DNA of 64,000 nucleotides from a virus: positions 1 through 64,000 of the IMG/VR virus record IMGVR_UViG_3300014613_004232; one strand, 5' to 3'. A program made the position numbers and the translations under genes. A model generated the notes under the pieces. The model saw only the letters and a program-made list of their open reading frames with translations, was not told where the DNA came from and did no database searches. Positions 4,303 through 62,739 of this stretch are shown piece after piece. Position 1 is the first letter of the stretch; every line of letters starts with the position of its first letter.

Positions 4303-4343
4303 AGTGTTTCGCCCTCACCAACGGGTCAGATCGCAGATTTTCC
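4303..4343 (-). promoter_or_regulatory. Late-promoter motif (lysis operon)
   Basis: Minus strand GGAAAA-N29-AACACT. Confidence 0.75.
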
Positions 4344-4381
4344 AAAACGGCGTATCAACACAAAACTCCCCAGCCCGAACA

Positions 4382-7300
4382 TCACCCTGGCTGATCAGTC
4401 CAGGTGTCGAACCCGAACGTCTCCGTCGAGCCTGGATTGAGGTTGAACCCCGGATATCCGCCCGTGAGCGGCGTAGCGTCAGTCCATGTCTGAACCATGG
4501 AATCGTTGAGCCACACCTCCAACACACCACCCCCAACAGACCTCAGCTGCAACTCGACCTGATCGTCTTTGACGAGGGAATGCGGCGTAGTGGAAACTGA
4601 CGTGCCAGACTTGTAGAGTGCGATCTGGGTAGGGCCCATGCGAACGCTGTAGTTCGTCGGGTTGCCCGAATCCCCGCCGCCGCAGTGCACCGCGGGCCCA
4701 CCTTCCCAGCCAGTCGTGATGGCCGGGTCCGGGATGGTGAAGGTGACCTTGGACTGCTGCACATTGCCCTGCCCATTGGCATACCAAACGAGCCCGCTGT
4801 TGTTCTTCGCGATGTAAGAGCCCACCAGCCGTCCGCTGCCGTTGCAGAAGTAATACTCGTTGGCCGGGTAGTAGCCGAATGTCACCTGTCCCTGCCAGCG
4901 GGTTGCATCAAGAGACTTCAGCGTCGTGTTGAGCGCCGCAGAGAAGTTCCAGACGCCATAGCCATCCGGATCGAACTGAGCCGGCACGATGAGAATGCCT
5001 ATCGATGTCGCCAAACCGGTTTCGCCAGACTTGGTGGCTGAAACATCGCACTCGTACTGCGAGCCCTCGTCACCAGGCTGCGGCGTCACCGTGTTGGTTG
5101 TTTCGCCGGAGATGGCACTGCGAGTACCACCGCTGACCCTGAACCACTGGTAACCGTAGGACGTTGGACTGTTCGTCCAATCGCCAGTCGAAACGATGAG
5201 CGGATAGCCCGGTTGACCACTACCTGAGATCGCCGGCAGAGTCGTGCAGATCGGTGTGGTCGACGTGACCACCTGGAACAGGGGCGACAAGGCCTCTGCC
5301 GAGGTGCCGCTCTCGTTGACGCCGCGCACGCCCACCCTCACGAATTGACCCGCCCGGCCGGTGGTGACGAAGGTCTGTCCTGTGGCACCAGCGATCAGCG
5401 TCCCGCTTCCGTCGTACCAACGGAACAGGTGGTTGCTCGGGAGCGGAGAGAAGAGATACCCACCCGCTGTGACGGTGTTGCCCTCCACATTGCTACCCGT
5501 GATCGTCGGGGACGAGATCACCGAAGGCACTGGCACGACGTCGAACGGATAGAGAACGGACCTGCGCGAGGGAATCAGGTTGCGCGCGATGGCGTCAGGG
5601 TGCACGTAGGCAGTGAGGCCAAAGAACGGGCTGCTCAACAGGAGGTCGATGTCACCGGCGGCAAGGTTGACGAATCCGGGGGAGTCCGTCGCCTCGGACA
5701 GCCCATTGAGTCCAACGCCGGTGTACTGCACACCTCGGGCGATGTTCGAGGCGTAGTTGGTGTCATAAGCGGTCAGCACAAACCTGTTGCACCAGTTCGA
5801 CTGCCAATCCGCCAGGCCCTGCCAAGAGAAGAGACCGAACGGCGCGAGCTTGCCGGCGGGCGTCGCAGTCTTCGTGTAAAACAGGTTGTTGCGCGCATGC
5901 ACCGTGATCGGCGAGCGCGTGTTCCACATACTGAACAGAGGGACGCGATACGGGTCGTAGTAGACGCCCGTGTATCCAGACTGACCGTCCATCTCGGCCA
6001 GGACGATGTTGCTGTAGAAGTAAAGGTTTCCGCTGCGCAGTTCACCGTTTCCTCCGTCGCCAACGCCAATGACCGCCTGGGGCGTCCCCTTGACCAAGAA
6101 GGTGTTCCCGTAGCAGAAGATCTTCTGGACCATGAGGGTCCCAAGCGAATCAACGGCCTGGGACTCCAGGATCCCGTTTTGGGCGGAGTCTTCGTTGGAA
6201 GGGTCTCGGAAGGCAACAGCGTTCGCGGTCGCCGTGATGCAGTTGTACCGGTAGACCACCCCGGAGGAGCGCTCCTTGACGGCATCACCGTTCGAGCCGG
6301 GGTAGTTGGCCCCGATCACATTGAACTCGACGATCGTGCCGATCGCTTCGAGGTACATGCCGTGAGTGGAGTAACTGCCCTCGGAACTGCAGTTGTAGAT
6401 CCAGTTGTTGCAGACGTGGATCCGGTGCGACTGGAAGCGGTCGTGGTTCGTCGAGTTGACGAACACGCCCAGGCCGCAAGTGTGGATCTTGTTGCCCTGA
6501 ATGCAGATGTTGTGGCCACCGAGAACATAGAAGCCCTCGGAGAACTCACCCCAAGCCGTGGCGATCGTGGCGCCTCGCGGGAGCCTGTCCTTGGTCGGGT
6601 GGGCGTTCTTCAACTCCAACCCAGTGACGTGAATGAATCGGGCCTTCGTGCCGTAGGCAGTGCCATCCACGCCCGCAGTGAACGGGCCAATCGACACAAG
6701 CGCGCTGCCATCAAGGAGGGGATAGTGTCGCCCGTCGGCGCAGATTGCGTCAGCACCGTCGAAGACGGGCATGGCCCCTGTGACTGGATCGCGCACGCCG
6801 ATCACTTCAATCCAGGCATCTTCGGTGCCGCAGGCGGTCAGGACGATGGTTCGGTTGTACGCGGTCGGCCGGCTGTAGATGTAGACGCGATCGCCTGGCA
6901 GAAGGAACTCCCAAGGCACTTGGTCCACGTCGGTGTATGGCTTGCCGGGACCCACCTCGAAGTCGTAGGCGTTGCTCGGGCGCCCCTGTTGGTTTGGCAG
7001 CCGAAGGGTGTAGTCCCAGGGCGTGTAGTTAACAGCGTCCTGAACGAAAGTGCGGTCCGGAAGAGGGCGGCTAGGTAAGGGGTTGGGGGCTGGCCGATCA
7101 ATCACCGGCTGGGCCCGGTAGGACGCAAAGAAGGCTTGCATCTCTGCCGTCGTAGGAGGCGGCGGCGCAACGCTGACCCTCAGCAGACCCGTGAAGGGTG
7201 TTGTTCCATCGGTCGCGGTGTAAGTGATGTCAGGACTGACACCGCTCACGCTGGAGCTCAATGGGACGAGAGAGTAGGCGCCATTGGCGGCGATGGTGAG

Positions 7301-8029
7301 CTCACCAAAACTGGGGATGCTGACGCTGGAGCCAGGGGCATGGACTCCGCCGACGCCGGCCACTGCGAACGCCGTCACAGTCAGAGTTTGGCCTTCGTAG
7401 TCGAGATCGTTGACCAGGACATTTCCAACGGCCGTCTCGCCAGCACTGACCGACTTGTAGTCAGGGCGAGCGATAGGCGTTTGGTCCGTCCCATCGATCC
7501 GGATCTGAAAGTTCTGAGTCGTGCGCCCGCCGGCCTCGTCCATGACCGTGTAGCCGAAGGCGACGTTGACCTGCTGGCCAGCGGTGAGTGCGCGGGCGGC
7601 GTCATTCGGCGTGAAGACGTAGGCGCCATCAGCGCCAACGACCATGGTGCCGTAGGTTGTCGTGAAGGCGGTACCGAGGGTGCGCGGCACGCTGTTGTAG
7701 GAGATGCCCACCAAGGACATCGGCCCACCCTCCGGATCGACGGCGTTGTCGAGCAGGTTGCCAGCGATCGAGATGGCGGTGTCGGAGATTGCGCGAAGCG
7801 CGGCCTGCACCACCGGCAACTGGTTGATGGATGCCAGGGCGGCCTGGTGCGCGAGGACCATGTCCACGACCGCTTTGCCGCCGATCCACTCTGGGACGCC
7901 GGTCGTCTGGTTCTTGATCCACAACTTGTCGTTGGCGAACGTGTAACCCTGCTCACTGAGCTCAAGGTCGGCAGCGTCTGGTATGAGTTTCGTCGTGCTC
8001 CGACGTGTGCGAAGGCGCTCGATTGCCAT
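4382..8029 (-). CDS. Large fibre/tailspike: VCBS/cadherin-like Ig repeats, parallel beta-helix lyase-like domain, Ig-like repeats, C-terminal lectin-like domain
   Basis: GNLLDNAVDPEG and GNVLVNDLDYEG VCBS-type repeats; IEFNVI..N..GS.GDAVKERSSGVVYRYN beta-helix; PAISG...STGDW...YQW Ig repeats. Confidence 0.75.
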   Translation of the reverse strand: MAIERLRTRRSTTKLIPDAADLELSEQGYTFANDKLWIKNQTTGVPEWIGGKAVVDMVLAHQAALASINQLPVVQAALRAISDTAISIAGNLLDNAVDPEGGPMSLVGISYNSVPRTLGTAFTTTYGTMVVGADGAYVFTPNDAARALTAGQQVNVAFGYTVMDEAGGRTTQNFQIRIDGTDQTPIARPDYKSVSAGETAVGNVLVNDLDYEGQTLTVTAFAVAGVGGVHAPGSSVSIPSFGELTIAANGAYSLVPLSSSVSGVSPDITYTATDGTTPFTGLLRVSVAPPPPTTAEMQAFFASYRAQPVIDRPAPNPLPSRPLPDRTFVQDAVNYTPWDYTLRLPNQQGRPSNAYDFEVGPGKPYTDVDQVPWEFLLPGDRVYIYSRPTAYNRTIVLTACGTEDAWIEVIGVRDPVTGAMPVFDGADAICADGRHYPLLDGSALVSIGPFTAGVDGTAYGTKARFIHVTGLELKNAHPTKDRLPRGATIATAWGEFSEGFYVLGGHNICIQGNKIHTCGLGVFVNSTNHDRFQSHRIHVCNNWIYNCSSEGSYSTHGMYLEAIGTIVEFNVIGANYPGSNGDAVKERSSGVVYRYNCITATANAVAFRDPSNEDSAQNGILESQAVDSLGTLMVQKIFCYGNTFLVKGTPQAVIGVGDGGNGELRSGNLYFYSNIVLAEMDGQSGYTGVYYDPYRVPLFSMWNTRSPITVHARNNLFYTKTATPAGKLAPFGLFSWQGLADWQSNWCNRFVLTAYDTNYASNIARGVQYTGVGLNGLSEATDSPGFVNLAAGDIDLLLSSPFFGLTAYVHPDAIARNLIPSRRSVLYPFDVVPVPSVISSPTITGSNVEGNTVTAGGYLFSPLPSNHLFRWYDGSGTLIAGATGQTFVTTGRAGQFVRVGVRGVNESGTSAEALSPLFQVVTSTTPICTTLPAISGSGQPGYPLIVSTGDWTNSPTSYGYQWFRVSGGTRSAISGETTNTVTPQPGDEGSQYECDVSATKSGETGLATSIGILIVPAQFDPDGYGVWNFSAALNTTLKSLDATRWQGQVTFGYYPANEYYFCNGSGRLVGSYIAKNNSGLVWYANGQGNVQQSKVTFTIPDPAITTGWEGGPAVHCGGGDSGNPTNYSVRMGPTQIALYKSGTSVSTTPHSLVKDDQVELQLRSVGGGVLEVWLNDSMVQTWTDATPLTGGYPGFNLNPGSTETFGFDTWTDQPG

Positions 8030-8040
8030 TTGAACCTCGA

Positions 8041-8322
8041 TCAGAAGTCGCCGCCGTCGGACACGCCGGGCGCCGGCGCGGGGGACGGGGAAGGAGATGG
8101 GGAGGGAGAAGGTGCGGGGGACGGGCCCGGAGCGGGAGTGGGGGCCCGGTAGTCCTCTACGACGATGAGCGGGGTGGCTCGAACCATCCGCCCGTCCGTG
8201 TCAAAGAAGTCCGTCTTTGAGCCAGCCGCCGTCGACAGCGCGGTTCGGTCGGCAATGATCACCACTGGGATGCCCCGAATGGTTTGGCCGTCGTCGTCGA
8301 TGTACTCGATGATGCTGCTCAT
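8041..8322 (-). CDS. Small fibre adaptor: ~59-aa anchor domain, Pro/Ser linker, C-terminal DGGDF
   Basis: N-terminus is paralogous to that of the 42357-44807 tailspike; (PS/PA)n linker. Confidence 0.7.
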   Translation of the reverse strand: MSSIIEYIDDDGQTIRGIPVVIIADRTALSTAAGSKTDFFDTDGRMVRATPLIVVEDYRAPTPAPGPSPAPSPSPSPSPSPAPAPGVSDGGDF

Positions 8323-8348: not shown

Positions 8349-8389
8349 AGTCTCAAGCCCGCCATCCCCCCACCGCCGGTCGGTTTTCC
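8349..8389 (-). promoter_or_regulatory. Late-promoter motif
   Basis: GGAAAA-N29-GAGACT. Confidence 0.75.
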
Positions 8390-8638: not shown

Positions 8639-9377
8639 ATAGTTCGCGCGTGCTTGGGCTGATGCAGGTGGAGGATGGAAATCGAACAGGGGGCACCTCA
8701 ACCCCCGGTTCGTTCGGCATGCACACGATCCCGTCGTCACCAACGCCGAGGTGGAAGAACTGCCGCAGATCCTCCTGGCCATCCAGGAAGGTGTTCACCA
8801 GGCGCTCGAAGTGTGTCTCCCGCATCGCGCGCACGGCCTCGATTCGCGCCTTGTGCCACGCGAGCACGGCCACGTCGCTCATGGTCGACCAATCGGGGCT
8901 CACTCCCAAGGGGAGGATCTGCGCCGCGATGCAACCCACCATCCACTCGCCGCGGTGCGTGCACAGTTGCTCCAGCGCCTCCGCCTGCACCCCGAGCAAA
9001 GGACGCATCTCCATGGGGCCATCCCCGACGTCGATTCCGCTCAGCACCATCGAGCGCGGCTCGGCTGTGAAGTCGATGTAGCGCGACAGTCGGGCCTTGT
9101 CGCTGCCCCCGACCGAGAAGTCGGGGCCATCGTCGGTGACGCCCATCAGGTACTGGACAACCAGTCGGATGCGCTCGCTGACCGTCCACAGCCTGTGATC
9201 CTTCACATACGCGGCCGACGGGGCATCCGCCTGGGCAGCCGAGAACCTGAGGAACTGCGACGTGGCGACCTCGTGGCGAGAGGGGGGTATACGGCAGATG
9301 GAGATCGCCTGGTCAAGGGTCAACTCCTTGAGGGCGACGGACACCCGCGCCGTTCGGATTCTGGGGAAGTCGATCAT
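8622..9377 (-). CDS. Putative tail/baseplate assembly protein (P1-like morphogenesis)
   Basis: Position in tail operon; ATGA coupling with upstream gene. Confidence 0.5.
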   Translation of the reverse strand: MIDFPRIRTARVSVALKELTLDQAISICRIPPSRHEVATSQFLRFSAAQADAPSAAYVKDHRLWTVSERIRLVVQYLMGVTDDGPDFSVGGSDKARLSRYIDFTAEPRSMVLSGIDVGDGPMEMRPLLGVQAEALEQLCTHRGEWMVGCIAAQILPLGVSPDWSTMSDVAVLAWHKARIEAVRAMRETHFERLVNTFLDGQEDLRQFFHLGVGDDGIVCMPNEPGVEVPPVRFPSSTCISPSTRELFAHAR

Positions 9378-13119: not shown

Positions 13120-14778
13120 TTACTTCAGACCGGTGACGTTGAGCAGACCGCAGCCCTTGGCAGAGGGCTCGTGCGGGTTGACCACCGTGAAGTTGCGGGC
13201 GTACATCGCCAACTGCTTGTTCAGGTCCAGTTGGGTGCCGATCTCGACCAGGGTGGGCGCCACAGCGTCACCCAGCAGGATCGGGCAGCGAGCGACCTGG
13301 TTGCTGCGACCGATCAGCAGCATTTCAGCGCTGCTGAGGTCAGCCGCCTGGGTGACCACCTTGGGCGAGTAGTACACGTCGTACTTGCCGTACAACTTGC
13401 CGGCGCGGTAGATGCCGGGGCGCTCGGTCAGGCCCGAGGGCTCGAAGATGTCGCGACCGCAGGACAGCCATTGGTTGATCAGGAAGGACGAGGCATAGAC
13501 GAACGACACACCGAAGTCCATGGTCGTGTTGGCCATCTGTTGGCTCAGTTCACCCAGCGGGGCCTGGGCGTCCAACCACATCTGCGAGCGGTTCATCTGC
13601 AGCGAGCGATCGGCGTAGTCCAGGTCGTGGGTGGCGCTGTTGTGGACCGACAGCCTGCGGACGTAGCGCAGAGCCTGGTAGTGGCGCTCCATGGCCAGTT
13701 GGGTGCGCAGCGCCAGCAAGGCTTCGCTTTCGCCATCCAGGCCCAGTTCGTTGCGCAACTGGCCTTGTGCGTCGATGGACAGTTTCGTGGCGATGCGATG
13801 AGCGTTCGCGTACACCGACCAGACTTCGGCCTTGATACCGACCAGAGGGATCAGAGAAGGCTGGGTCTCGTAGTCGATGAAGCCCTGTACCACCACCTTT
13901 TGGTAATCGGCGGGCAATGCGGGGGTCACGCTGGTGATCTGCACCGCGCCAGATGCCACGGTGACGTAACCGGTCAGGGTGTGCGTGGTGCCGGCGATGG
14001 TCACGGAACCGGTGAAGGGGCTGTTGGCGGCGCTGCCAGTGGCGGTGTCAGTTGCGATGGGCAGACCACCCACATAGACGATGCTGCGACCACGAAGGAC
14101 GCCAACGCCGGTGCCGGCCGGATCGCAGAAGCCAGGGTTGCCAACCAGGTTCGAGGTCGTGAACTTCGAGTTGTACGGGCCTGAGCCATTGGTGTCGATC
14201 TCGACCATGCGCTGGCTGGAGGCGTACACGTCACCCACGTTGGTGCCGTCCATCAGTTCGCCCAGGGTGTAGTCGCCGAAGGCGGAGCCGGCTTGGTGCG
14301 AGAGGATGGCCAACTTGCCTTCGTTGGAGCCGATGTCGACCGGCAGGTAACCGGCGAACGGGATGGCTTCAGCGATGCCCGACAGGATGGCCACCACAGC
14401 GCGGTTGGGCTGCAGGGAGATCTGATCGTGATGGGCGCTCGTGACCGAGTCCGTGACGTGGATCAGGGCGGCGTGGCCTTGCTGGATGGCGGCATCGACC
14501 ACGTCGGCGGTCGGCTGGCGGCCGTGCGAGGTTTCGAACTCACGGATGCCCATGAGCACCGAGTCCAGGACCCGTGCATGATCATTTTCATCAGCGACCT
14601 CCAGGATCTGCGCCAGGCGCTTCGGCAGCTTGACGCCGTTGGCTTCGTTCTTCACCGAATCCAGAACGTCCTGGCCACGCAGGCCCGTACCGATGTCAGA
14701 CGACACGCTGTCGAGAAAAACGCCTGCTTCCTGCGTGGATGCGAGCGTGTAAATGGCTTGTTGCTGCTTCTTGGGCAT
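13120..14778 (-). CDS. Major capsid protein (P1 gp23-like)
   Basis: ~550 aa with strong codon bias; own late promoter; GIYRAGKLYG.YDVYYSP C-terminal pattern; GGAG SD before ATG at 14778. Confidence 0.85.
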   Translation of the reverse strand: MPKKQQQAIYTLASTQEAGVFLDSVSSDIGTGLRGQDVLDSVKNEANGVKLPKRLAQILEVADENDHARVLDSVLMGIREFETSHGRQPTADVVDAAIQQGHAALIHVTDSVTSAHHDQISLQPNRAVVAILSGIAEAIPFAGYLPVDIGSNEGKLAILSHQAGSAFGDYTLGELMDGTNVGDVYASSQRMVEIDTNGSGPYNSKFTTSNLVGNPGFCDPAGTGVGVLRGRSIVYVGGLPIATDTATGSAANSPFTGSVTIAGTTHTLTGYVTVASGAVQITSVTPALPADYQKVVVQGFIDYETQPSLIPLVGIKAEVWSVYANAHRIATKLSIDAQGQLRNELGLDGESEALLALRTQLAMERHYQALRYVRRLSVHNSATHDLDYADRSLQMNRSQMWLDAQAPLGELSQQMANTTMDFGVSFVYASSFLINQWLSCGRDIFEPSGLTERPGIYRAGKLYGKYDVYYSPKVVTQAADLSSAEMLLIGRSNQVARCPILLGDAVAPTLVEIGTQLDLNKQLAMYARNFTVVNPHEPSAKGCGLLNVTGLK

Positions 14779-14837
14779 CTTGATCTCCGTGGTTAAGAGC
14801 ACGTGCCAAACCCGGCGTGCGTGCCGATGCGTGACGC

Positions 14838-14878
14838 ATTCTTCGAAGAGTCAAGAGGGGTGATTTGGTCTGTTTTCC
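14838..14878 (-). promoter_or_regulatory. Late-promoter motif (capsid operon)
   Basis: GGAAAA-N29-AAGAAT. Confidence 0.8.
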
Positions 14879-17264: not shown

Positions 17265-17762
17265 TCAGACAGGCAGGATGTTGCCCGGGATGGTTTCGCC
17301 GTAGAACTGGAAGAACAGCGTGCCGGCGAAGGTCAGCACCTGAGTGCGGTTTTCCCAGTCGCGGTCCACCGGGTCCAGAACGATGAAGGCGTCGCGGATC
17401 TTGACGGCGCGGTAAAAGCGATCAGGCGAACCTTCGTACACGGTCGCGTTGAATCGCCCGCCCTTGGCATTGACGTTGTTCAGGAAGGCCTGGGCAATGC
17501 CGTTCACCGTCTCAGAGAAGGTGATCTGCCCCTGTTGGTGGACCTTCAGTTGCTGGGGCTGCCACGAGGCGCTGCCGACGGGGCCAGCGACCTCGATTTC
17601 GCCGCCCGGCGTCAACACCGGCCACGGGAACTGCTTGATGAGGATCGCCGCCTGAGGGAAGCCCTCGGGCTCGAAGAAGGCGTCGGAGTTGATCGCCTTG
17701 TCGCCGACGGCCTTGGCGAGGTTGTAGAAGCCCTTCAGGACTTCGGGACTGGAGAGAGACAT
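17265..17762 (-). CDS. Tail tube protein (P1 Tub/BplB-like)
   Basis: QFPWP...EIEV.GP.G...QQGQITFSET tube-fold pattern, 165 aa, own late promoter. Confidence 0.7.
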   Translation of the reverse strand: MSLSSPEVLKGFYNLAKAVGDKAINSDAFFEPEGFPQAAILIKQFPWPVLTPGGEIEVAGPVGSASWQPQQLKVHQQGQITFSETVNGIAQAFLNNVNAKGGRFNATVYEGSPDRFYRAVKIRDAFIVLDPVDRDWENRTQVLTFAGTLFFQFYGETIPGNILPV

Positions 17763-17795: not shown

Positions 17796-17836
17796 AGTCT
17801 GGGAGGTGCCCTCTCTGCGTCTTTTGGCCGTTTTCC
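17796..17836 (-). promoter_or_regulatory. Late-promoter motif
   Basis: GGAAAA-N29-CAGACT. Confidence 0.8.
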
Positions 17837-17898: not shown

Positions 17899-17916
17899 CG
17901 GGGAGGGGAGACCTGA

Positions 17917-19203: not shown

Positions 19204-19332
19204 CCGCTCCGTTGCTGAAAAAGAGGCAACACGGGCTTGGTCGCCCGGAACAAGGCGCAGCAAGCCGCGCCATCATCCAGAAGGCAGCGGCTTTTTCACG
19301 TCCGTGAAGCTGCGTGCACACGCGCTCCGTTT

Positions 19333-19410
19333 TATGGTGGGCCGTGTGGGGAGGAGGAAACTCCTGCCGGCCCCTTGTCCGGTCGACCAACCCTGCACGG
19401 TCTGCCGCCC
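19333..19410 (+). ncRNA. c4: C4-type antisense RNA (P1/P7 ImmI-like)
   Basis: Long closing stem, AGGAG-GAAA-CTCCT hairpin, and loops CCTTGT (19373-78) and CGACCAA (19384-90). These are complementary to ACAAGG/TTGGTCG sites upstream (19237-55) and downstream (19416-55, over the SD). Confidence 0.88.
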
Positions 19411-19462
19411 TTCGCTTGGTCGCGAGGTGCGGCGGGTTTCGACACCGCCACAAGGAGCCACC

Positions 19463-20260
19463 ATGGCTGACCTCTCGATTCAAGGCGCACTCGCGCTGAC
19501 CTCCTCCGCCTCCCTGACCATGTCCAGCCGCGAGATCGCGGAACTGACGGGCAAGAGGCACGATCATGTGATGCGCGACATCCGCAACATGCTTGAGGAG
19601 CTTGGCGAAGATGCCCCCAAGTTTGGGGCGATGTTCCCAGACGCTTACGAACGCCCCCAGCCTGGGTTCGTTCTTCCCAAGGACTTGACCATCACCCTGG
19701 TGTCGGGCTACTCGGTGGTCATGCGTCACCGGATCGTCACCCGGTGGCAGGAACTGGAACAGCAAGCAGCGCGTCCGATGACCCAACTGGAGGTGATCGC
19801 CGCCAACGCCCAGGCGCTGGTCATGATCGAGCGCCAGCAGCAAGCCATCATGGCCACCCAGCAGCAGACCGCCGCCAACCTTGCCAAACTGGAGACAGCG
19901 GTCAACGAAGTCGCCCACATGGCGGCATCAACCCAAGTGTGGGACCACTGCCCGCAGAACTGCGAGCCCATCACCAAGATCCGCGGGCGCATGCTCAAGC
20001 AGTACGGCCTGCCGGCCTGGGTGGTGGACATGGTGATGCGCGAACTCCCTCTGAGCCCTAAGGTGCACGGCATGGTGCGCAACGGGCACGAGGAGGCCAA
20101 GGGCATGCACTATGAGGTGTGGGCCGTGGCGGACGTGACCAGGACCTTCAAGCGATTCGTGGACGCGTGCAAGCCGGAGACGGCGCACTTCGCCAGCCAC
20201 CCAGACATTGATCGCCGCTTCCACATCAAGGCGGGCATGCTCTCGGGAGGTGCAGCATGA
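19463..20260 (+). CDS. Rha-family phage antirepressor/regulator
   Basis: MSSREIAELTGKRHDHVMRDIR and LVSGYS...R.RI..RWQELE Rha motifs; AAGGAG SD. Confidence 0.88.
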   Translation: MADLSIQGALALTSSASLTMSSREIAELTGKRHDHVMRDIRNMLEELGEDAPKFGAMFPDAYERPQPGFVLPKDLTITLVSGYSVVMRHRIVTRWQELEQQAARPMTQLEVIAANAQALVMIERQQQAIMATQQQTAANLAKLETAVNEVAHMAASTQVWDHCPQNCEPITKIRGRMLKQYGLPAWVVDMVMRELPLSPKVHGMVRNGHEEAKGMHYEVWAVADVTRTFKRFVDACKPETAHFASHPDIDRRFHIKAGMLSGGAA

Positions 20261-20607
20261 GCAACCTCAGCGCCATCCACGCCGCCGCCCTTCCCTCGCA
20301 ACTGCAGGACGTGGCCGAGCTCATCGCCCAGCACGGCCGGCCAGACCGCCCACCGAACCTTTATGCGAGCCTTCAGTCCCTCAGGACCATCGACCAACAG
20401 GTGTTCGACTACTGCGGGAAGATCGAGGCCCTGATGAAGGCAATGCTGGCCATCATCAACACCAGCACGGAAACCGAGTCGTCGGACACCCTGCGCCACC
20501 TGGCCAGACTGGCTCAACAGCGGGCGAACCTCTGCCGAGAAGACGTCACCGCCGCAGTCGAGGAGGCGGGCCTCCTCGCCCTGGACGAAGACTCCTTCAT
20601 CATCTGA
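20257..20607 (+). CDS. Hypothetical protein in antirepressor operon
   Basis: ATGA overlap with Rha gene; followed by hairpin at ~20617-20640. Confidence 0.7.
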   Translation: MSNLSAIHAAALPSQLQDVAELIAQHGRPDRPPNLYASLQSLRTIDQQVFDYCGKIEALMKAMLAIINTSTETESSDTLRHLARLAQQRANLCREDVTAAVEEAGLLALDEDSFII

Positions 20608-25748: not shown

Positions 25749-25789
25749 ATGCTGCAACCGCTGGGCGCGACTACCTGGGCTTACTTTCC
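25749..25789 (-). promoter_or_regulatory. Late-promoter motif (portal operon)
   Basis: GGAAAG-N29-CAGCAT. Confidence 0.75.
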
Positions 25790-34117: not shown

Positions 34118-34158
34118 AGTGTGGGAATCGGCGCCCCCCTTCAGGAGGCCCGTTTTCC
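34118..34158 (-). promoter_or_regulatory. Late-promoter motif (darB-ulx)
   Basis: GGAAAA-N29-CACACT. Confidence 0.8.
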
Positions 34159-36359: not shown

Positions 36360-36400
36360 ATTTGGCCCGCCCTCCGGCCTCACTCGCTCGCGGCCTTTCC
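36360..36400 (-). promoter_or_regulatory. Late-promoter motif
   Basis: GGAAAG-N29-CCAAAT. Confidence 0.7.
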
Positions 36401-42122: not shown

Positions 42123-42163
42123 ATGATCTTGTCGGCCGCCGGCGCCCTACCCGCCTCTTTTCC
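42123..42163 (-). promoter_or_regulatory. Late-promoter motif (darA-ddrB)
   Basis: GGAAAA-N29-GATCAT. Confidence 0.75.
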
Positions 42164-42165: not shown

Positions 42166-42350
42166 TTACGGCGACCCGATCGCCTTGATGCGAGAGACAG
42201 CCTCGCTGAAGATGCTCTCGGCCGCGGCGTCATCGACTGCCTCCTGAATTCGGTACTTGGCGGTCAGGCGGATCCGGGCGATTTCCGAAAACCCGCTACG
42301 GTCAATCGCTGCGGGCAATGCCGCACTCAAGCCGATCGCAAGGACAACTC
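42166..42350 (-). pseudogene. 3' remnant of a tail-fibre assembly-like gene
   Basis: IRLTAKYRIQEAVDDAAAESIFSEAVSRIKAIG resembles fibre-chaperone C-termini; no convincing start of its own. Confidence 0.4.
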
Positions 42351-44832: not shown

Positions 44833-44872
44833 AGTCTGCAATCTCAGTTTCCACGAGAACCTCTCGGTTTCC
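44833..44872 (-). promoter_or_regulatory. Late-promoter motif (tailspike)
   Basis: GGAAAC-N28-CAGACT. Confidence 0.7.
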
Positions 44873-47411: not shown

Positions 47412-48509
47412 TCAAGTCTTGATGACGCCAGCGAAGGCGGTCGAGCGGCCTCGGGTTTCAGTGGCGATCCGCGGTGCACCGTACCCACCGAGTTCACCCA
47501 CCCAGGGGGTGTAGATCTCCCAGCCATGGCCATTGCCATTGGTGGTGGTGTCGCTGACGTCGCCTTCCGAAGGCCCGTTTTTGAAACCATGGCTGTGACC
47601 CTGGAACGCGTCCTGCAGCCAGGCGCCAAAACTCTGACCGGGAAGCACCCCGCGGAGGTCATCCCAGAACCGGATGTGCTCGCCTCGAACATCTGCGGAA
47701 GCGAACGTACCGTCGCCGTTGTCCTTGTAGAACAAGGTGCCGGCGGTCCAGCCGCTGGAGAGCATCAAGCCGTGATGCTTCGCCCAGTGGTAGAGCGCCA
47801 AGGTGTTCGGCAGGCCAGTCACGCCGGTCTTGATCCAGGCGTTACGCGGGGTGGGCTGGGTGTCAGGCCTGAGCCAGCCGATGTCGACAGAGGCGTACCC
47901 GATGTAGTTCGCCCCGTTCGCCGTGAAGGACTGCCAAGTCATCAGGGAGTTGAAAGCCGCTGACCAGATGGGCCCCTCGTCAACGGTAGGCAGCGCCGCG
48001 GCTGCGCCGAAGTGCCGGATGTACTGGACGTGCGGGTGGGGGTTGCTCAAGTGCTGGGCCATGATGGCCAGCGCCAGCGCGCCACCCGGATCAACCTCGA
48101 TGGTCACCGACCCGGCTGGCACCCGGGTGACCTTCATCGCGAACTGACCCACCCAATCGATGGTGTTGCGCTGGAAGATGGTGGTGCCCGGCGCCGAGTG
48201 GACCGCAAAGAGCACCCCGCCTGCATCCGGGTCGCCGGCATAAAAACCGATCTCGCCCACGTTGTAGGGGGCGCCAGCGTATGACGGCAAGTATGCGGAG
48301 ACCAGGAAGCCGCCTGAGCCAGTGGAAACTGAACCAGAGATGGCCACCTTCTCCTTGCGAAGCACCAGCGCCACCGCATTGTCGGCCGGGGCGTACTGCC
48401 CCTGTCCGAGAACGATGTGGGTGATCTTGAGCTGGATGCCGTCGGCGTCAGCATTCACCGCCGCAGCGAGACCGGCGTCGGTGATCTTGGGGGAGATGAC
48501 GGTTGGCAT
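47412..48509 (-). CDS. Tail fibre protein (baseplate-attached N-terminus, collar domain)
   Basis: ITDAGLAAA...EIGFY...LFAV N-terminus; PHPHVQY; DVRGEHIRFWD...Q.DAFQGHSH...ETRGRS.AF collar/tip motifs. Confidence 0.85.
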   Translation of the reverse strand: MPTVISPKITDAGLAAAVNADADGIQLKITHIVLGQGQYAPADNAVALVLRKEKVAISGSVSTGSGGFLVSAYLPSYAGAPYNVGEIGFYAGDPDAGGVLFAVHSAPGTTIFQRNTIDWVGQFAMKVTRVPAGSVTIEVDPGGALALAIMAQHLSNPHPHVQYIRHFGAAAALPTVDEGPIWSAAFNSLMTWQSFTANGANYIGYASVDIGWLRPDTQPTPRNAWIKTGVTGLPNTLALYHWAKHHGLMLSSGWTAGTLFYKDNGDGTFASADVRGEHIRFWDDLRGVLPGQSFGAWLQDAFQGHSHGFKNGPSEGDVSDTTTNGNGHGWEIYTPWVGELGGYGAPRIATETRGRSTAFAGVIKT

Positions 48510-48542: not shown

Positions 48543-48583
48543 AGCATTCACGTCACGCCAGCCTGGTCGGCCGCCCGTTTTCC
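48543..48583 (-). promoter_or_regulatory. Late-promoter motif (tail fibre operon)
   Basis: GGAAAA-N29-AATGCT. Confidence 0.75.
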
Positions 48584-51319: not shown

Positions 51320-52749
51320 CAGTAGCTCCACAGGGAGTTGCCGAACTTCGCGCTCTTGACGTCAACCGTGAGGCTCGCCCCGGTCACGTGCAGGTACTGC
51401 TCGGGCAGAAGCGTCACTGGGATAGTCACGGTGGCCTTGAAGTCTGCCGATGCGTCCTGGAGCGCTGGCACCTTCGCCTCCAGGAGCTTGTTGAGGTCCT
51501 GGTTGGGAACGGGATTGCGCATGCCCCGCGAGACCGCCTTGGCCCCATCTCCGTACTCGCCCAGCACGGCGGTGGTGATCTGGGCCTCCACGGCGGCGAT
51601 GTCGTGCACCACGGACACGCTCGCGTCCACCGTGACAGGGATCGGCGTCAGGACAGTCGGCACGAACCGGACCCTGTAGGAGTCGTCCGCCCGCTTGACC
51701 AGTTCGCGGACTCGGGCCTCGAACTGGGCATTGCTCATCCCATCGACCAGGCCAGAGACGAACAAGGTGTTGATGTTGTCGACGTTGGCGCCCCGCACGC
51801 TCTCCTCGATCTGCTCGTTCCAGACGCTCAGGAATCGAGGAGTGAGGTAGCGACGCAGTAGCGCATCGAACTCGGCCAGGAACACCGCGTTGTGGTCGTA
51901 GATCGCGGGGTAGCGCGCCATCACCCGCAGATCCGCCATGGATGGGGGGTTGGCACCGGTGTCTTCCACCGAGGTCAGGGAGGCCTTCACCAGTCCATCC
52001 CCGGGCGTCAGGATGTACTGCAGAGTGAAGGTGTCGCCTGCGCTCAGGTCGCTGATCTCGCCCTCGCATTCGGTCATGCGCAACTCGAAGACGTCGCCGG
52101 CGGTCACGCTGAAGCCCACGCGCGTCGAGTCACCCATCCGGACCCACAGTCGACGTAGCTCGTCGGTTTCCAGGGTGTAGGCGAGTTGGCCAGCCGTGAT
52201 GTTGAAGAACTCGGGCGAGTAGGTGAACTCCACCCCGCTCTTCCAGACGCTGAGCATGGTGAGGTGAGAGGAATCGCTCACCGGCACCTGGATCTCGTAG
52301 AACGGCTGGGCGATCTGCACCTGGTGCGTCACGGTCCGGGTGCTCTTCTGGGTGAGGGCGACCGAGCCGGTCTGGCCCGCGGGGATGGTCACCGAGGCGT
52401 CCGCCTGGTACAGGCGCCCCTTGTTGTCCATGAGCAGGCGCCCGGCGATGACCGTGAAGGCGGAGGGGCCGTCGTTCTTGAGGGCGATCGTGCCGCGCCA
52501 CGGGCGCGCGAGCGGCAGGATGCCCTTGAGCGCCGCGTCGGCCAGCACCGTCGAGTCCAGGGTCTTCGTGAACGCCTCGAACCGCCCAACCTCGGAGTGC
52601 TGGGCCAGCAAGAAGGACATCTCCACCTGCGCGCCGATCTGCGCCAGCACGCGAGGGTCGCCAGCCTGGGCGGCCAGGGCGATGGACGGGAACTGGGACA
52701 GCGCATTGAGCGCTGCCTGTCGGATCTGATCCTTGGTCGGTGCGCTCAC
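51319..52749 (-). CDS. Baseplate J-like protein (P1 BplA-like)
   Basis: STVLADAALKGILP; ETDELRRL.VR.GD...G; J-like size and position. Confidence 0.8.
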   Translation of the reverse strand: MSAPTKDQIRQAALNALSQFPSIALAAQAGDPRVLAQIGAQVEMSFLLAQHSEVGRFEAFTKTLDSTVLADAALKGILPLARPWRGTIALKNDGPSAFTVIAGRLLMDNKGRLYQADASVTIPAGQTGSVALTQKSTRTVTHQVQIAQPFYEIQVPVSDSSHLTMLSVWKSGVEFTYSPEFFNITAGQLAYTLETDELRRLWVRMGDSTRVGFSVTAGDVFELRMTECEGEISDLSAGDTFTLQYILTPGDGLVKASLTSVEDTGANPPSMADLRVMARYPAIYDHNAVFLAEFDALLRRYLTPRFLSVWNEQIEESVRGANVDNINTLFVSGLVDGMSNAQFEARVRELVKRADDSYRVRFVPTVLTPIPVTVDASVSVVHDIAAVEAQITTAVLGEYGDGAKAVSRGMRNPVPNQDLNKLLEAKVPALQDASADFKATVTIPVTLLPEQYLHVTGASLTVDVKSAKFGNSLWSY

Positions 52750-53039
52750 AGGGCCTCCACGTCGATGCTTTGGCCCAGGACGTCGATGCGGATGACCTTG
52801 CGGTCGAAGTCAGCATCCACCGCGCTCACGCTCACGGTCCCAGCAGGCGCCACCGACAGAATCGGGATGTCCATCCGCATCTTGGCGATGAGGTCATCGG
52901 CCGCAGGAGAAGACATCGGCTGCATCAGCATCGACTTGACGTCCGAGCCATAGTCGGACCCAAGGTAGCCATTGGGTGGGCACCCAAGGTGGTGGGTGAC
53001 CATCCCTTGCAGGTCTTGGGGGGTGAGGGTCTGAGCCAT
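52746..53039 (-). CDS. Baseplate wedge gp25/gpW-like protein
   Basis: H.L..P.NGYLGSDYGS...K.R.DIP.L motif. Confidence 0.75.
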   Translation of the reverse strand: MAQTLTPQDLQGMVTHHLGCPPNGYLGSDYGSDVKSMLMQPMSSPAADDLIAKMRMDIPILSVAPAGTVSVSAVDADFDRKVIRIDVLGQSIDVEAL

Positions 53040-53046: not shown

Positions 53047-53087
53047 ATTTGGCCTCTTGGCACGCCACGGTGCGGCGGTCACTTTCC
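53047..53087 (-). promoter_or_regulatory. Late-promoter motif, probably giving a leaderless mRNA
   Basis: GGAAAG-N29-CCAAAT; ATG follows only 7 nt after the hexamer. Confidence 0.7.
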
Positions 53088-53091: not shown

Positions 53092-53282
53092 AGGCGAAAG
53101 CCCCCGAATGAAGAACCGACATCCGGGGGCCCTCTTGCTCCATGAGACTAGACGCCACCACCTCTCGGCGGCTTTCGGCGCCCTGGAGCCTGCTCTACAC
53201 CTGTTCAGACCTGGGGGCACAGTGGTACGACTGTGCCGGCACTTCACCCTGCCGGCAGACCCTGAACTGGCCTTGCTTGGGT
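53092..53282 (-). ncRNA. Unannotated structured late ncRNA (~190 nt) with own promoter and terminator
   Basis: Promoter motif at 53289-53329; several helices with G-U pairs and a GAGA tetraloop on the minus strand; terminator at 53092-53130. Confidence 0.65.
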
Positions 53283-53288
53283 GAGGCC

Positions 53289-53329
53289 AGTTTCATCGGG
53301 CTCAGGCGCCCGGCCCTGGCACGCTTTCC
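53289..53329 (-). promoter_or_regulatory. Late-promoter motif driving the ncRNA
   Basis: GGAAAG-N29-GAAACT. Confidence 0.7.
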
Positions 53330-53704: not shown

Positions 53705-53780
53705 TGGCGCGCCGGAGAGGACTCGAACCCCCAACCCTGGGCATAGGAAACCCCTGCTCTTTCCGTTGAGCTACCGGCGC
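53705..53780 (-). tRNA. tRNA-Arg (anticodon CCT)
   Basis: Full cloverleaf: GCGCCGG/CCGGCGC acceptor, loop TTCCTAT, TTCGAGT T-loop, encoded CCA. Confidence 0.92.
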
Positions 53781-55793: not shown

Positions 55794-55868
55794 TGGAGCG
55801 GGCTGGGGGAATCGAACCCGCCATGAGTGGCTTGGAAGGCCACGGCCTGACCATTCGGCCAAGCCCGC
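55794..55868 (-). tRNA. tRNA-Gly (anticodon TCC)
   Basis: GCGGGCT/AGCCCGC acceptor, U73, GTGGC-CTTCCAA-GCCAC arm, CCA. Confidence 0.92.
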
Positions 55869-55875: not shown

Positions 55876-55952
55876 TGGTTGCGGTGTCTGGATTCGAACC
55901 AGAGACCTTCGGGGTATGAACCCGACGCGCTACCAGGCTGCGCCACACCGCC
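55876..55952 (-). tRNA. Initiator tRNA-fMet (anticodon CAT)
   Basis: 1:72 mismatch (G:A); TCGGG-TTCATAC-CCCGA arm with three consecutive G-C pairs; CCA. Confidence 0.9.
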
Positions 55953-56191: not shown

Positions 56192-56232
56192 AGTTTGTGA
56201 GGGTGTCAAACCGTGGTGCCGAACCGTTTTCC
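56192..56232 (-). promoter_or_regulatory. Late-promoter motif heading the tRNA/ncRNA cluster
   Basis: GGAAAA-N29-CAAACT. Confidence 0.75.
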
Positions 56233-56248
56233 GAAATAGACCGCGCCT

Positions 56249-56836
56249 TCAGTAGGCGCTGCCAGGCTGGCCTGGATCGTTGGAGCCGGTGCAGGCGTTG
56301 GCGCAGGAGTTCGCCTGAGGGCAGCGCTTGTTCCCGCAGGTCGGGCACAGCACCATGCGGACCGACCCGATGTCGGCAAGGCTCACCGGCCGACAGGTGT
56401 GGCACTGGCCGCACGGCTTCGGCCTGGACGACAGAAGCCGGAAGGCCTCGGCAGCCACGGCCCCGAAGGTGTCGGCCCGGATCTCTTCGGCTTCCTCGTC
56501 CTCGTCCGGTTCTCCCGTGACGTGGCCAACCTCGTGGGCGAGCATGTGGAGGACGTCACCAGGTGCGGCCGCGGGGTCTGCCCAGGCGTGGATGGTCCGG
56601 GTCTCCGTGTCGACGAAGCCCCACATGCCCATTTCGCGGATGCTGTCCACGACCTGCTCGACGGTCATGGCCTCGTCGTCTCCGTTGGGCGAGGTCACGC
56701 CGATCACGGTGGTCGCGGGGAACTCGGCGGCCGTGATGCCCTCGGCAAGGCAGGCGGCCTCCCACATGGCGTAGAAGACGTTCTCCGGGGTCGTGTGCCA
56801 GACGATGCACAGGGGTTCGATGGGTTCGATGATCAT
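56249..56836 (-). CDS. Zincin-like (HExxH) protein with C-terminal Cys-rich Zn-finger
   Basis: LAHEVGH...E..AD; C..C..C...CPTCGNKRCP...C. Confidence 0.7.
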   Translation of the reverse strand: MIIEPIEPLCIVWHTTPENVFYAMWEAACLAEGITAAEFPATTVIGVTSPNGDDEAMTVEQVVDSIREMGMWGFVDTETRTIHAWADPAAAPGDVLHMLAHEVGHVTGEPDEDEEAEEIRADTFGAVAAEAFRLLSSRPKPCGQCHTCRPVSLADIGSVRMVLCPTCGNKRCPQANSCANACTGSNDPGQPGSAY

Positions 56837-59325: not shown

Positions 59326-59585
59326 TTGTCACCGCCCTTCTTGCCGGTGAAGGACATGGCCTCCAGTTTCGCGATTTGCTTCTTCAGGCTGGCGATCTTG
59401 GCGAGGCGCTTCTTCTCGGCCGCCTGCTTGGCTTCGGCTTCGGTCTCGTGGGCATCCCGGCCCAACTTGAAACCTGAGCAGTAGCCACTCGGGAAAACGT
59501 AGCCGTAATCGCTCACTTTGCCGTCCCAATCTGCGGCCTTGATGCCGTAGGTCAGGGCGTACTTGCTGATCCACAGCGATTTCAT
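59322..59585 (-). CDS. Hypothetical phage protein
   Basis: WI.KYALT.GI...K.IASL.KQI.KLE pattern; coupled. Confidence 0.65.
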   Translation of the reverse strand: MKSLWISKYALTYGIKAADWDGKVSDYGYVFPSGYCSGFKLGRDAHETEAEAKQAAEKKRLAKIASLKKQIAKLEAMSFTGKKGGDK

Positions 59586-60310: not shown

Positions 60311-60744
60311 GCTTCACCGCCCTTCTTGCTTGGCTGGAACTCCTTCGGCACGCCGCGCAACTCGCGTTTGCTTGACAGGAAGGTAGGTGCCTTCTCTGAC
60401 TGGACATACCGAACCCCGCTGACGCTGACTATGAGCTTGAATCGGAAGGTGTGATTTCCATCTTCACCAACGCGGCGAACGACCAGCACACCGGTCGGCG
60501 TCTTACGCACGATGACGACTTCGCAGTCAATTGAGACGCGCCCGGTTCTCCACTCCAGGGTCACCATGCGGCACTTGGGCAGGCCAGCATCGGCGGCAAC
60601 ACGTGCGGCTCTCACGGTGCCAATTGCCTCGACGAGTTCACGCTCCAGACGCTTGACTGCCTCTTGAGCCGAACTGAGTTCTTGAGCCTTGGCAAGTCGT
60701 GCAGCTTCAGCAGCGACGACCTCAGGTGGCAATTTGCTCTTCAT
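60307..60744 (-). CDS. Hypothetical protein
   Basis: Coupled ORF. Confidence 0.6.
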   Translation of the reverse strand: MKSKLPPEVVAAEAARLAKAQELSSAQEAVKRLERELVEAIGTVRAARVAADAGLPKCRMVTLEWRTGRVSIDCEVVIVRKTPTGVLVVRRVGEDGNHTFRFKLIVSVSGVRYVQSEKAPTFLSSKRELRGVPKEFQPSKKGGEA

Positions 60745-61157
60745 GCAGCACCGCCCTTCGATTCGGCAACCTGCCCGCTCGCCGTCTTCAGGCCCAACGC
60801 CTTCAGGACGGCCTCCACCACGAACACACCATGGTCACCGGTCGGGTCTTCACTGAATGCCTGCAGGGCCTCGTGCACCTTGGGCTGGTCAGCGATGGCT
60901 TCCATGTCGAACCAGGTGTGCACCTTCGTGACGGATGGGGGCAGCAGGTCCAGCACGGCGGAGGCGATCTCATCGACGCGCGACGCTTGATCAGCCACGC
61001 GGACGAAATCATCGGCGTGCATGGTCCCGATCTGCCATGCAGCCCAAACGCGCATGCAGTCATAGGCATCGCCCAGGGACTCCTGCACGGCCTCCCAGAC
61101 GGCAGTGCTCAAGGCCTCATCGCGGGGGCTGGATTCAGGTGTGGTGGTGTCGCTCAT
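60741..61157 (-). CDS. Hypothetical phage protein
   Basis: LGDAYDC.RVW.AW..GTM..DDF motif; coupled. Confidence 0.65.
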   Translation of the reverse strand: MSDTTTPESSPRDEALSTAVWEAVQESLGDAYDCMRVWAAWQIGTMHADDFVRVADQASRVDEIASAVLDLLPPSVTKVHTWFDMEAIADQPKVHEALQAFSEDPTGDHGVFVVEAVLKALGLKTASGQVAESKGGAA

Positions 61158-62413
61158 GTCGTGCTTTCGAAGTAAGGGCTGACGCTGAATCCAGCGCAGC
61201 GGTTGAAACGGGTGGAGGAGCCCGAGAGGTATTCGCCCATGAGCTCGGAGCCGAGCCAGCGCCGGCCGTTGGCCTCGGCCGCCGCAGCGGTAGTGCCCCA
61301 GCCGTGGAACGGGTCGACGACCAGGGCGCCCTCGGGGCTCAGGTAGCGGACGAGGAAGTCGGCCAGGCCCAGGGGCATCGCCGCGCCGTGCACCGGCAGG
61401 CCGGCGGCGCGGGCTGCCTCCCTGGCCCGTTTGAGGTCAGAGTCCCCGGCCGCCTGGGCGAACTGCAGGACGTTGCGCGGGATCCGCCCGGCCGTGGGTG
61501 CACCGTAGGAGCCGGGGCGCAGGGTGTAGGCGCCGTCGTTGCGCGCGCTCGATCGCTGCACACCGCCCTGCTGGATCAGACGCAGGTGGCGCGCGGTGTG
61601 CTCTTCGAGGACGCGGCGGTTGTCCGCCAAGCAGGCGCGCGGGTCGTTGGTGAAGACGTAGACCGGCTCCCATGCGACGTTGAGTTGCATGCGCTCCTTC
61701 GACGCCCACGCGACCGGGCCCGGCGGCTTGGTCGGGTTGTGCCAGACCAACTCGTCCATCTTGTGCAGGCCCAGGCGGTCGCACATGGCGATGACCAGGC
61801 GCTCCCGGTAGGTCGAGCGCGACGGCATGCCTGGCTCGAAGATGTCGTTGCTGACGTTGAGCGCGATGGTCCCGCCTGGCACCAGGTGGCGCGCGATCGG
61901 CTCCAGTTGCTCGCACAGCCAGTCCACGTAGGCGGCCAGGGGCACATTGCCGTAGGCGCGAGGCTTGGCCAGCGGGTACGGGGGGCTCGTCAGGCAGAGG
62001 GTGATGGGCTCATCGAGGGCGCCGAAGACGTCCGCGCAGGAGCCCCACAGGGCCACGCCCAGGTCGGTCGAGTACGCGACCATCACGGCGCGTGGCTGCT
62101 GGGGCGTCAGCGCCTGGCGCGCGCCCGAGGTCAGTTGCCACTCGCCACGGCGGCCCGGTACCGGCTCAAGCCAGCCTTTGGCCTTGAGGGTCTGTTGGTG
62201 CCAACGCACCCGGCGCGCGGCCGTGCTGTGCGCCTGGCCGGTGCGGCCGATGGGCTGGCGGCTCAGGAACTCGGTGACCGGCTGCCCGGCCCGACGCGCG
62301 GCGGCCTGATACAGCCCTCCATTCGAGAGGCGCCCCTCCTCGGTTCCGGCGTATGCCTTCACCACCTCGCGCAGGCTGTCCGGCAGGTCATCCAGCAAGG
62401 GGAGTTGCTGCAT
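61154..62413 (-). CDS. Site-specific DNA methyltransferase (beta class, SPPY; probably N4-cytosine) with N-terminal wHTH
   Basis: TSPPY catalytic motif before VVDPFHGWGTT SAM motif; Mrr_N-like RVRW....L...G.LE...RGEW N-terminus. Confidence 0.9.
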   Translation of the reverse strand: MQQLPLLDDLPDSLREVVKAYAGTEEGRLSNGGLYQAAARRAGQPVTEFLSRQPIGRTGQAHSTAARRVRWHQQTLKAKGWLEPVPGRRGEWQLTSGARQALTPQQPRAVMVAYSTDLGVALWGSCADVFGALDEPITLCLTSPPYPLAKPRAYGNVPLAAYVDWLCEQLEPIARHLVPGGTIALNVSNDIFEPGMPSRSTYRERLVIAMCDRLGLHKMDELVWHNPTKPPGPVAWASKERMQLNVAWEPVYVFTNDPRACLADNRRVLEEHTARHLRLIQQGGVQRSSARNDGAYTLRPGSYGAPTAGRIPRNVLQFAQAAGDSDLKRAREAARAAGLPVHGAAMPLGLADFLVRYLSPEGALVVDPFHGWGTTAAAAEANGRRWLGSELMGEYLSGSSTRFNRCAGFSVSPYFESTT

Positions 62414-62416
62414 GGA

Positions 62417-62647
62417 TCAGCCCCCGAACGACGCCACGAACTGGGCCATGGCCTGCAGGTCCTGGAGCTCCGCGAACATCACCGCCGGCCACAGCGCGCC
62501 GGCGACGAGGCAGGCCAGCGCCTGGGGGATGGCGTCGACAGACCAGTGCATGTCGCCCATCCAGATCAGCACGGCCATGAACGCGCCGAAAACGACGGCG
62601 CCGATGGCGACGTAGGCAGTCAGCAAGCCAGAGAGGAAGTCCTTCAC
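62417..62647 (-). CDS. Small 2-TM membrane protein
   Basis: AGGAG SD, GTG start, two hydrophobic helices. Confidence 0.6.
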   Translation of the reverse strand: MKDFLSGLLTAYVAIGAVVFGAFMAVLIWMGDMHWSVDAIPQALACLVAGALWPAVMFAELQDLQAMAQFVASFGG

Positions 62648-62698
62648 GATGTCTCCTGTTGAGGTTGAGAGAGGGAATGCAGCGGCTCAACGGGGGCG

Positions 62699-62739
62699 AC
62701 TTTCTCGCCCTCGCTGTATGTCCGTTCAGTGCGTTTTCC
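62699..62739 (-). promoter_or_regulatory. Late-promoter-like motif upstream of the MTase operon
   Basis: GGAAAA-N29-GAAAGT; CCGTTCAGTG direct repeat nearby. Confidence 0.6.

Follow-up and report, generated by a model that had tools for sequence, protein, structure and literature searches.

Putative late promoters with a GGAAAA box, a fixed spacer, and a -10 element in a P1-like provirus

Phage genome and location of the element

The window analyzed here, positions 1 to 64,000 of IMG/VR record IMGVR_UViG_3300014613_004232, makes up the first 64 kb of one contig of 93,835 bp and 64% GC, classified as a complete provirus. Almost all genes of this 93.8-kb genome are carried on the minus strand, and the repeated element studied here is found in short gaps between genes. 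It consists of the box GGAAA(A/G/C), a spacer of 28 or 29 nt, and a hexamer. Genes of P1-type modules are present (portal, tube, and fiber genes and an internal-head protein), and a 2,302-aa gene at 27181-34089 (minus strand) combines an N6 methylase with a SNF2 helicase, the architecture of DarB. The major capsid protein is 46.6% identical to its homolog in Xanthomonas phage Rb1, the sole phage record with DNA similarity to the genome, and just 22.7% identical to gp23 of P1; this low identity and the GC content rule out P1 itself. The phage is a temperate myovirus that is distantly P1-like, with a kinship that is real at the module level. Many of its genes have no family match, and searches of IMG/VR for close relatives with the capsid protein, the capsid alignment, and the helix-turn-helix (HTH) protein described below returned no matches.

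A preliminary description of the window listed 14 copies of the element as a late regulon. All 14 were confirmed letter by letter on the minus strand, with a 29-nt spacer throughout except for 28 nt at 44833-44872. The membership was set too low, as further good copies lie outside the window at genome positions 66010, 69873, and 73919 (all minus; sites are named here by their higher coordinate), and at least 17 late transcription units are headed by a GGAAAA box, 28 to 29 bases, and a -10 element, with no -35 element. Each site follows the stop codon of a minus-strand gene and precedes the start codon of the next by 7 to 56 nt, or else precedes tRNAs. Eleven of them stand upstream of lysis, virion, or DarB-like genes, as had been reported, and beyond the window the downstream genes are a 541-aa gene, terS-terL, and a NinI-like phosphatase gene.

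Strand bias, spacing, and conservation

The box has the core (T)TCGGAAAAC. Over the full 93.8 kb, all 10 copies of TTCGGAAA belong to the minus strand, and TCGGAAA has 13 minus-strand copies and one plus-strand copy. Noncoding DNA makes up 16.5% of the genome, yet it holds 35 of the 70 minus-strand copies of GGAAA. The composite pattern GGAAA-N31-ANANT has eight matches in the window against 0.52 expected, every one of them on the minus strand, and eight matches were reached in 0 of 100 shuffles.

The hexamer also emerges when it is not selected for. All 35 intergenic minus-strand copies of GGAAA were taken with no condition on the downstream sequence, and the information content from these boxes alone peaks only at +36, +38, and +40 (A, A, and T), which are positions 2, 4, and 6 of the hexamer. 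Offsets +12 to +17, where a -35 element would be found, carry 0.14 bits or less. A matrix trained solely on capsid-gene promoters from other prophages gave, at a threshold of ≥14 bits, eight minus-strand sites and no plus-strand sites in this genome, compared with about 0.4 in simulated sequence.

In Rb1, GGAAAA followed by 28 or 29 nt and a hexamer precedes the capsid, tube, internal-head, baseplate-region, fiber, and lysis genes. These junctions are orthologous to sites in the present genome, and the element has been kept at them although the proteins are just ~45% identical. A profile search with one genome per species yielded 39 prophage loci, in Beta- and Gammaproteobacteria with a GC content of 37-68%, whose capsid gene is related at 32-45% identity. 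Upstream DNA was scanned in 33 loci for which it was present, with three Moraxellaceae loci that have no GGAAA box left out, and GGAAAA-N27-29-nAnA(A/C)T precedes the capsid gene in 32 of the 33 (hosts of 40-68% GC). When 26 capsid-type promoters were aligned, the only invariant columns were GGAAAA, A(-11), and T(-7), with A(-9) in 90%; the spacer is conserved in length and not in sequence, no -35 column is conserved, and RNAalifold found no shared structure in these 26 orthologous copies. In five relatives the sites are nearly all on the late-gene strand, at the same junctions. Moraxellaceae prophages carry the box GTAACC(C), 27 to 28 nt before the hexamer and on the late strand only. Literature searches found no description of the motif or of regulation in phage Rb1.

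Hexamer, box symmetry, and predicted start sites

Two general features ascribed to the element at first, a "T-less" -10 and a pseudo-dyad (TTTCnGAAA), do not extend to the family. Across 114 unique family sites, the first base of the hexamer is T in 43, C in 31, G in 24, and A in 16. The commonest hexamer is TATATT, and TACAGT and TACCAT are also common, which indicates an ordinary -10 element. The T-less hexamers are a trait of this genome and of capsid promoters rather than of the class, and mainly argue for weak, activator-dependent -10 elements. By canonical sigma-70 standards, a -10 with A(-11) and T(-7) is present, and a -35 hexamer 16 to 18 nt upstream of it is absent. The left arm of the supposed dyad is not conserved: most relatives have AAAnCC there, and the box is therefore asymmetric. 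At several sites in this genome, part of the "TTTC" arm belongs to the T tract of the terminator before it. At sites 14878, 53087, and 56232, a strong terminator-like hairpin with a T tract directly adjoins the box, so that the units resemble terminator-promoter modules.

An ATG that opens a long open reading frame (ORF) lies 6 to 8 nt past the hexamer at six sites in relatives and at sites 53087 and 69873 in this genome. The arrangement at 53087 is conserved, its Rb1 ortholog having an ATG 6 nt past GACAAT. Since these ATGs fall where a sigma-70 promoter would start transcription, leaderless mRNAs are implied.

Other known elements were considered for the same sequences. The hexamer lies in the loop of a small GC hairpin at 6 of 18 sites (e.g., 62739, 4343, 66010, and 69873); N4-type hairpin promoters were rejected, as such loops are confined to this minority of sites and no structure is shared. 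The Xanthomonas PIP box (TTCG-N15-TTCG) was rejected as well, since a single TTCG is present and it is not conserved in relatives.

Individual sites

The sites, with the transcription units that they are predicted to serve, are as follows.

4303..4343, minus strand: TTTTGGAAAAT box, 29 nt, AACACT; putative late promoter of a 137-aa gene (3861-4274) and an operon with an Amidase_3 endolysin gene (2200-2718).
8349..8389, minus strand: ATCTGGAAAAC, 29 nt, GAGACT; putative late promoter of ORF 8041-8322 and a 1,215-aa gene (4382-8029); same junction in Rb1 at site 41685.
14838..14878, minus strand: TTTCGGAAAAC, 29 nt, AAGAAT; putative late promoter of the major capsid gene (13120-14802); box abutted by a terminator hairpin and T tract.
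17796..17836, minus strand: ATCCGGAAAAC, 29 nt, CAGACT; putative late promoter of the tail tube gene (17265-17762); orthologous sites at Rb1 44078 and at 17905 in related locus L015.
25749..25789, minus strand: CTTCGGAAAGT, 29 nt, CAGCAT; putative late promoter of the portal gene (24144-25706); weaker box.
34118..34158, minus strand: AACCGGAAAAC, 29 nt, CACACT; putative late promoter of the DarB-like gene (27181-34089).
36360..36400, minus strand: TTTCGGAAAGG, 29 nt, CCAAAT; putative late promoter of a 728-aa gene (stop at 34175, likely start ATG 36334).
42123..42163, minus strand: AATCGGAAAAG, 29 nt, GATCAT; putative late promoter of a gene for a 1,205-aa internal-head-type protein (38482-42099); site 51754 at the orthologous Rb1 gene.
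42246..42286, minus strand: TTTCGGAAATC, 29 nt, GAATTC; weak, doubtful extra copy that was absent from the earlier list.
44833..44872, minus strand: TTTCGGAAACC, 28 nt, CAGACT; putative late promoter of an 816-aa gene (42357-44807).
48543..48583, minus strand: AAACGGAAAAC, 29 nt, AATGCT; putative late promoter of a tail fiber gene (47412-48509); Rb1 site 67746 precedes a tail-collar fiber gene.
53047..53087, minus strand: TTCTGGAAAGT, 29 nt, CCAAAT; putative late promoter of a baseplate-region operon (52746-53039 and downstream); ATG 7 nt past the hexamer.
53289..53329, minus strand: ATTCGGAAAGC, 29 nt, GAAACT; putative late-type promoter followed by about 200 nt with no credible ORF.
56192..56232, minus strand: TTTCGGAAAAC, 29 nt, CAAACT; putative late-type promoter 240 nt upstream of tRNA-Met (55876-55952) and tRNA-Gly (55794-55868); box abutted by a terminator-like hairpin (56243-56259).
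62699..62739, minus strand: ATTCGGAAAAC, 29 nt, GAAAGT; putative late-type promoter of a 76-aa gene (62417-62647) and a DNA methyltransferase gene (61154-62413).
Genome 66010, minus strand: copy preceding the 541-aa gene, which has a TTG start.
Genome 69873, minus strand: copy at terS (terS-terL), with an ATG 6 to 8 nt past the hexamer.
Genome 73919, minus strand: copy with hexamer TAGCCT.

At 36360-36400, an ATG and the listed hexamer share bases; the 728-aa gene more likely starts at in-frame ATG 36334, for which there is a GGAG ribosome site. The further suggestion that the element marks hidden transcripts has to be narrowed, as site 56232 leads to tRNA-Met and tRNA-Gly and genome 66010 leads to the 541-aa gene, which leaves 53329 as the only site with no obvious product. 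The segment between sites 53329 and 53087 (53092-53288, minus strand, about 200 nt) has strong hairpins and may specify a small late RNA. Three phage tRNA genes, Arg-CCT (53705-53780), Gly-TCC (55794-55868), and Met-CAT (55876-55952), all on the minus strand, lie within an ORF-poor 3-kb stretch into which promoter 56232 points.

Several observations concern the surroundings of single sites. The 93-aa ORF 8041-8322 (site 8389) and the 816-aa protein encoded at 42357-44807 (site 44872) have paralogous N termini, MSSIIEYIDDDG and MSSLIQYVDVDG. The ORF is followed in another frame by the 1,215-aa gene, an arrangement that could reflect a frameshift, a gene that has been split, or an anchor domain common to both proteins. 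The similarity between sites 62739 and 66010 is not limited to the motif but includes about 60 nt of flanking sequence (window 62699-62760 and genome 65970-66031; cactgaacgg...agccg box ... gttgagccgc), and the promoter region of site 62739 is duplicated at genome 66010. The sole convincing plus-strand copy, at genome 93538-93578 (GGAAAAC, 29 nt, CAACAT), precedes the last plus-strand gene, 93614-93835, at the contig end.

Search for known late regulators

The late-type signals were described at the outset as different from those of P1, and the searches agree. Annotated P1 late promoters (AF234172) consist of AAGTnACTT, 4 nt, and TAnnAT. This box is not enriched here: AAGTNACTT with no more than one mismatch has four matches in the window, all on the plus strand, against 7.3 expected. 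A P1-style geometry was rejected, as there is no -10-like hexamer four nt after the GGAAAA box. No match to the P1 Lpa protein or to Pfam family PF25716 (BPP1_LPA) was found in any of the six reading frames of the complete 93.8-kb genome, and an hhalign comparison of the HTH family with Lpa gave a probability of 1%. The Mor family (PF08765) had no match at E ≤ 1 in the whole genome and none among 48 nonvirion proteins, and the Ogr_Delta zinc finger (PF04606) had no match at E ≤ 1 in the whole genome. Sigma-70 region 2 (PF04542) likewise had no match in the genome in a search with a valid control, which very divergent factors could still escape. There was no match to the T7-type RNA polymerase family PF00940, but the control search for it found nothing either.

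A candidate activator upstream of the late operons

The preliminary description postulated a distinct late activator that was not identified in the window. A reader of the box encoded outside the window is supported, and the best candidate lies at genome 78060-78734. The gene encodes an XRE HTH protein that matches PHROG 7396, a family of unknown function. Beyond the virion and terminase genes, this protein (CDS 729-1343 in Rb1) and RdgC are all that the phage and Rb1 share, and exactly one match to the HTH protein was found in each of 10 out of 10 related host genomes. The HTH gene adjoins or overlaps terS in three related loci (L015, L013, and L010), and in relatives with a long enough flank it shares the strand of the capsid gene and is situated 7 to 9 kb upstream of it, immediately ahead of terS or overlapping it. 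This position parallels that of lpa before pacA in P1, in that a regulator gene stands just upstream of the terminase genes in both. The HTH gene comes after an upstream gene and is not preceded by a late box, and the protein should consequently be made before the late units are expressed.

An AlphaFold model of the protein (pLDDT 77) has an XRE domain followed by three long helices. In a structure search, solved structures matched the XRE domain alone, among them C.BclI, C.AhdI, and the lambda cI N-terminal domain with sigma region 4. An Atlas search with the protein found only unnamed HTH clusters, and the 17 closer homologs are all unnamed or labeled just "XRE-family regulator." The Moraxellaceae proteins differ from the others at the start of helix 2, where SQ is replaced by TE or KP, and in helix 3, where GYxNSxKL is replaced by G/R-L/I-K/R-N-P/K-K-V. 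The covariation between box and HTH protein is suggestive; it amounts to one event, confounded with host family.

In the present genome, the position directly upstream of terS that the HTH gene has in relatives is taken by a 234-aa orphan gene (genome 69897-70601, minus strand) with no Pfam or PHROG match. The orphan was rejected as the activator for want of a family match and because neither Rb1 nor five related host genomes have a homolog of it.

Interpretation and rival explanations

We consider it probable that these signals are late promoters in which a -10 element with no -35 is combined with a GGAAAAC docking site for an activator, and that the XRE HTH protein is the most likely activator. 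Judging from sequence comparisons, the promoter role, the start positions, and the protein reading the box would be as follows. Each element would be the promoter of one late transcription unit, and its hexamer would serve as a sigma-70-type -10 in which A at -11 and T at -7 would be essential. The 7-bp GGAAAAC at about -47 to -41, fixed 28 to 29 bp upstream of the -10, would be the docking site of an activator that is encoded by the phage and brings in host RNA polymerase, as a substitute for the -35 contact. Transcription would start about 7 nt past the hexamer, at some units on the A of the start codon, giving leaderless mRNA. The activator would be the protein of genome 78060-78734, supplied from an early or middle operon upstream on the same strand.

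Several points weigh against this interpretation. Some sites precede genes that are not obviously late, namely those for the NinI-like phosphatase, the methyltransferase, and tRNAs. The link between the HTH protein and the box is drawn from co-occurrence and from the single clade-level covariation, in a clade that also differs in host family. The only recognizable domain of the protein is a generic XRE fold, typical of repressors, and the protein could have its role in packaging or immunity instead. A distance of 8 kb separates its gene from terS in the present genome, and the C-terminal half of the protein shows only weak similarity to those of relatives. Finally, RNA polymerase alpha could contribute at these promoters, as the A tract of the box sits at the proximal UP-element subsite; the two coincide if the hexamer is taken as -12 to -7.

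This last point also speaks for a rival reading, in which the signals are promoters and the box is read by a host component, either the alpha C-terminal domain at a UP-like A tract (-45 to -42) or a conserved host transcription factor, with late timing coming from elsewhere. The clade with the GTAACC box, being found in a different host family, Moraxellaceae, would fit such a reader. However, GG is invariant even in hosts of 40-45% GC, where A tracts are common, which indicates base-specific reading. One box is moreover used across Burkholderiales, Nitrosomonadales, Methylococcales, Chromatiales, Halomonas, Aeromonas, and Xanthomonas hosts, and the sites are confined to the phage late strand, so that we regard reading by the host as distinctly improbable. 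It is unlikely, too, that the promoters are read with another phage factor that the searches missed, such as a divergent sigma-like protein or appropriator or a hypothetical protein of the virion module, leaving the HTH protein a role in, for example, pac-site recognition or immunity. The many genes with no family match, several of them small conserved hypotheticals common to all relatives, leave room for such a factor, and XRE proteins are usually repressors. Nevertheless, genes within late operons cannot start late transcription, the six-frame search gave no sigma, Mor, Ogr, or Lpa signal, and only the HTH protein unites a DNA-binding fold, single-copy conservation across the family, expression from upstream of the late promoters, and residues that differ where the box differs.

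That the element acts in RNA rather than as a promoter, through processing, nut- or put-like antitermination, or a translational operator in polycistronic transcripts, seems to us very improbable. Every site does lie between co-oriented genes, and at six sites the hexamer is in the loop of a small GC hairpin. Against this stand the lack of a shared RNAalifold structure, the restriction of the conserved letters to exactly the -10 element and the box at a fixed DNA spacing, and the terminator-like hairpins and T tracts before several boxes, where upstream transcripts should end; the ATGs 6 to 8 nt past the hexamer fit transcription starts.

Set beside known systems, the proposed activator-dependent promoters are closest in organization to those of P1, which like the present phage is a temperate myovirus with homologous virion genes, a DarB-type gene, and a C4 RNA. 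In both phages the late genes are divided among many operons with promoters of their own, which combine a -10 with a short phage-specific box and have no -35. The P1 box is a 9-bp palindrome 4 nt from the -10 (center at -22), whereas the box here is the asymmetric GGAAAAC, 28 to 29 nt away (center at about -44). Mor and C of phage Mu are small Mor-family proteins that bind as dimers to dyad-symmetric sites. In Mu, several late operons are switched on by a phage HTH activator whose binding site is upstream of and overlaps the -35 region, at promoters in which the -35 is poor or absent (PMC4461284). The box here has a single conserved half, and the genome has no Mor-family match. P2, 186, and P4 resemble the present phage in having several late operons with a -10 and an upstream activator site that replaces the -35. 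Ogr-type proteins (Ogr, B, and Delta) are zinc fingers that bind TGT-N12-ACA near -55; the late activators of P2, 186, and P4 are of this type, whereas the present genome has no Ogr_Delta match. By fold, the DNA-binding domain of the candidate is most like XRE-fold activators that touch sigma region 4, namely lambda cI at PRM and the controller (C) proteins of restriction-modification systems, which activate from sites adjoining or overlapping the -35 region. Those proteins are dimers on palindromic operators and also repress, whereas the candidate adds a three-helix C-terminal part of about 120 residues with no structural match. The distinct late-promoter class described here is a new example of a familiar strategy and not a new principle.

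A broader proposal, which we advance tentatively and would place somewhat short of probable, is that PHROG 7396 is an undescribed class of late activators that recognize one asymmetric box of 7 bp (GGAAAAC, with GTAACCC in a single clade) centered near -44. Such proteins would take over from -35 recognition at every late promoter in a large clade of temperate P1-like phages of Beta- and Gammaproteobacteria, and the box and the recognition helix would have coevolved. With the signal as a guide, late operons and their likely start sites can be located in widespread and unstudied P1-like prophages, as can leaderless genes and tRNA and noncoding units, the hosts of these prophages including Xanthomonas, Burkholderia, Paraburkholderia, Nitrosomonas, Methylobacter, Halomonas, and Aeromonas. 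In evolutionary terms, a P1-type virion module would here be coupled to a different late switch, for which one candidate activator and a natural specificity pair, GGAAAAC and GTAACCC, can now be named.

Additional regulatory features

Two further features were observed apart from the late element. A C4 antisense RNA (Rfam RF01695, 66.8 bits) lies on the plus strand at window positions 19330-19412 and is followed by plus-strand ORFs 19463-20260 and 20257-20607; together they look like a P1/P7-type immI (c4-icd-ant) immunity cassette in a phage of 64% GC. The early and regulatory regions of Rb1 contain a second, different repeated motif, with inverted copies resembling GGGGTAAAC and GTTTACCCC (4712-4790, 9073-9140, and around 24523 and 32796), which may constitute an operator set.

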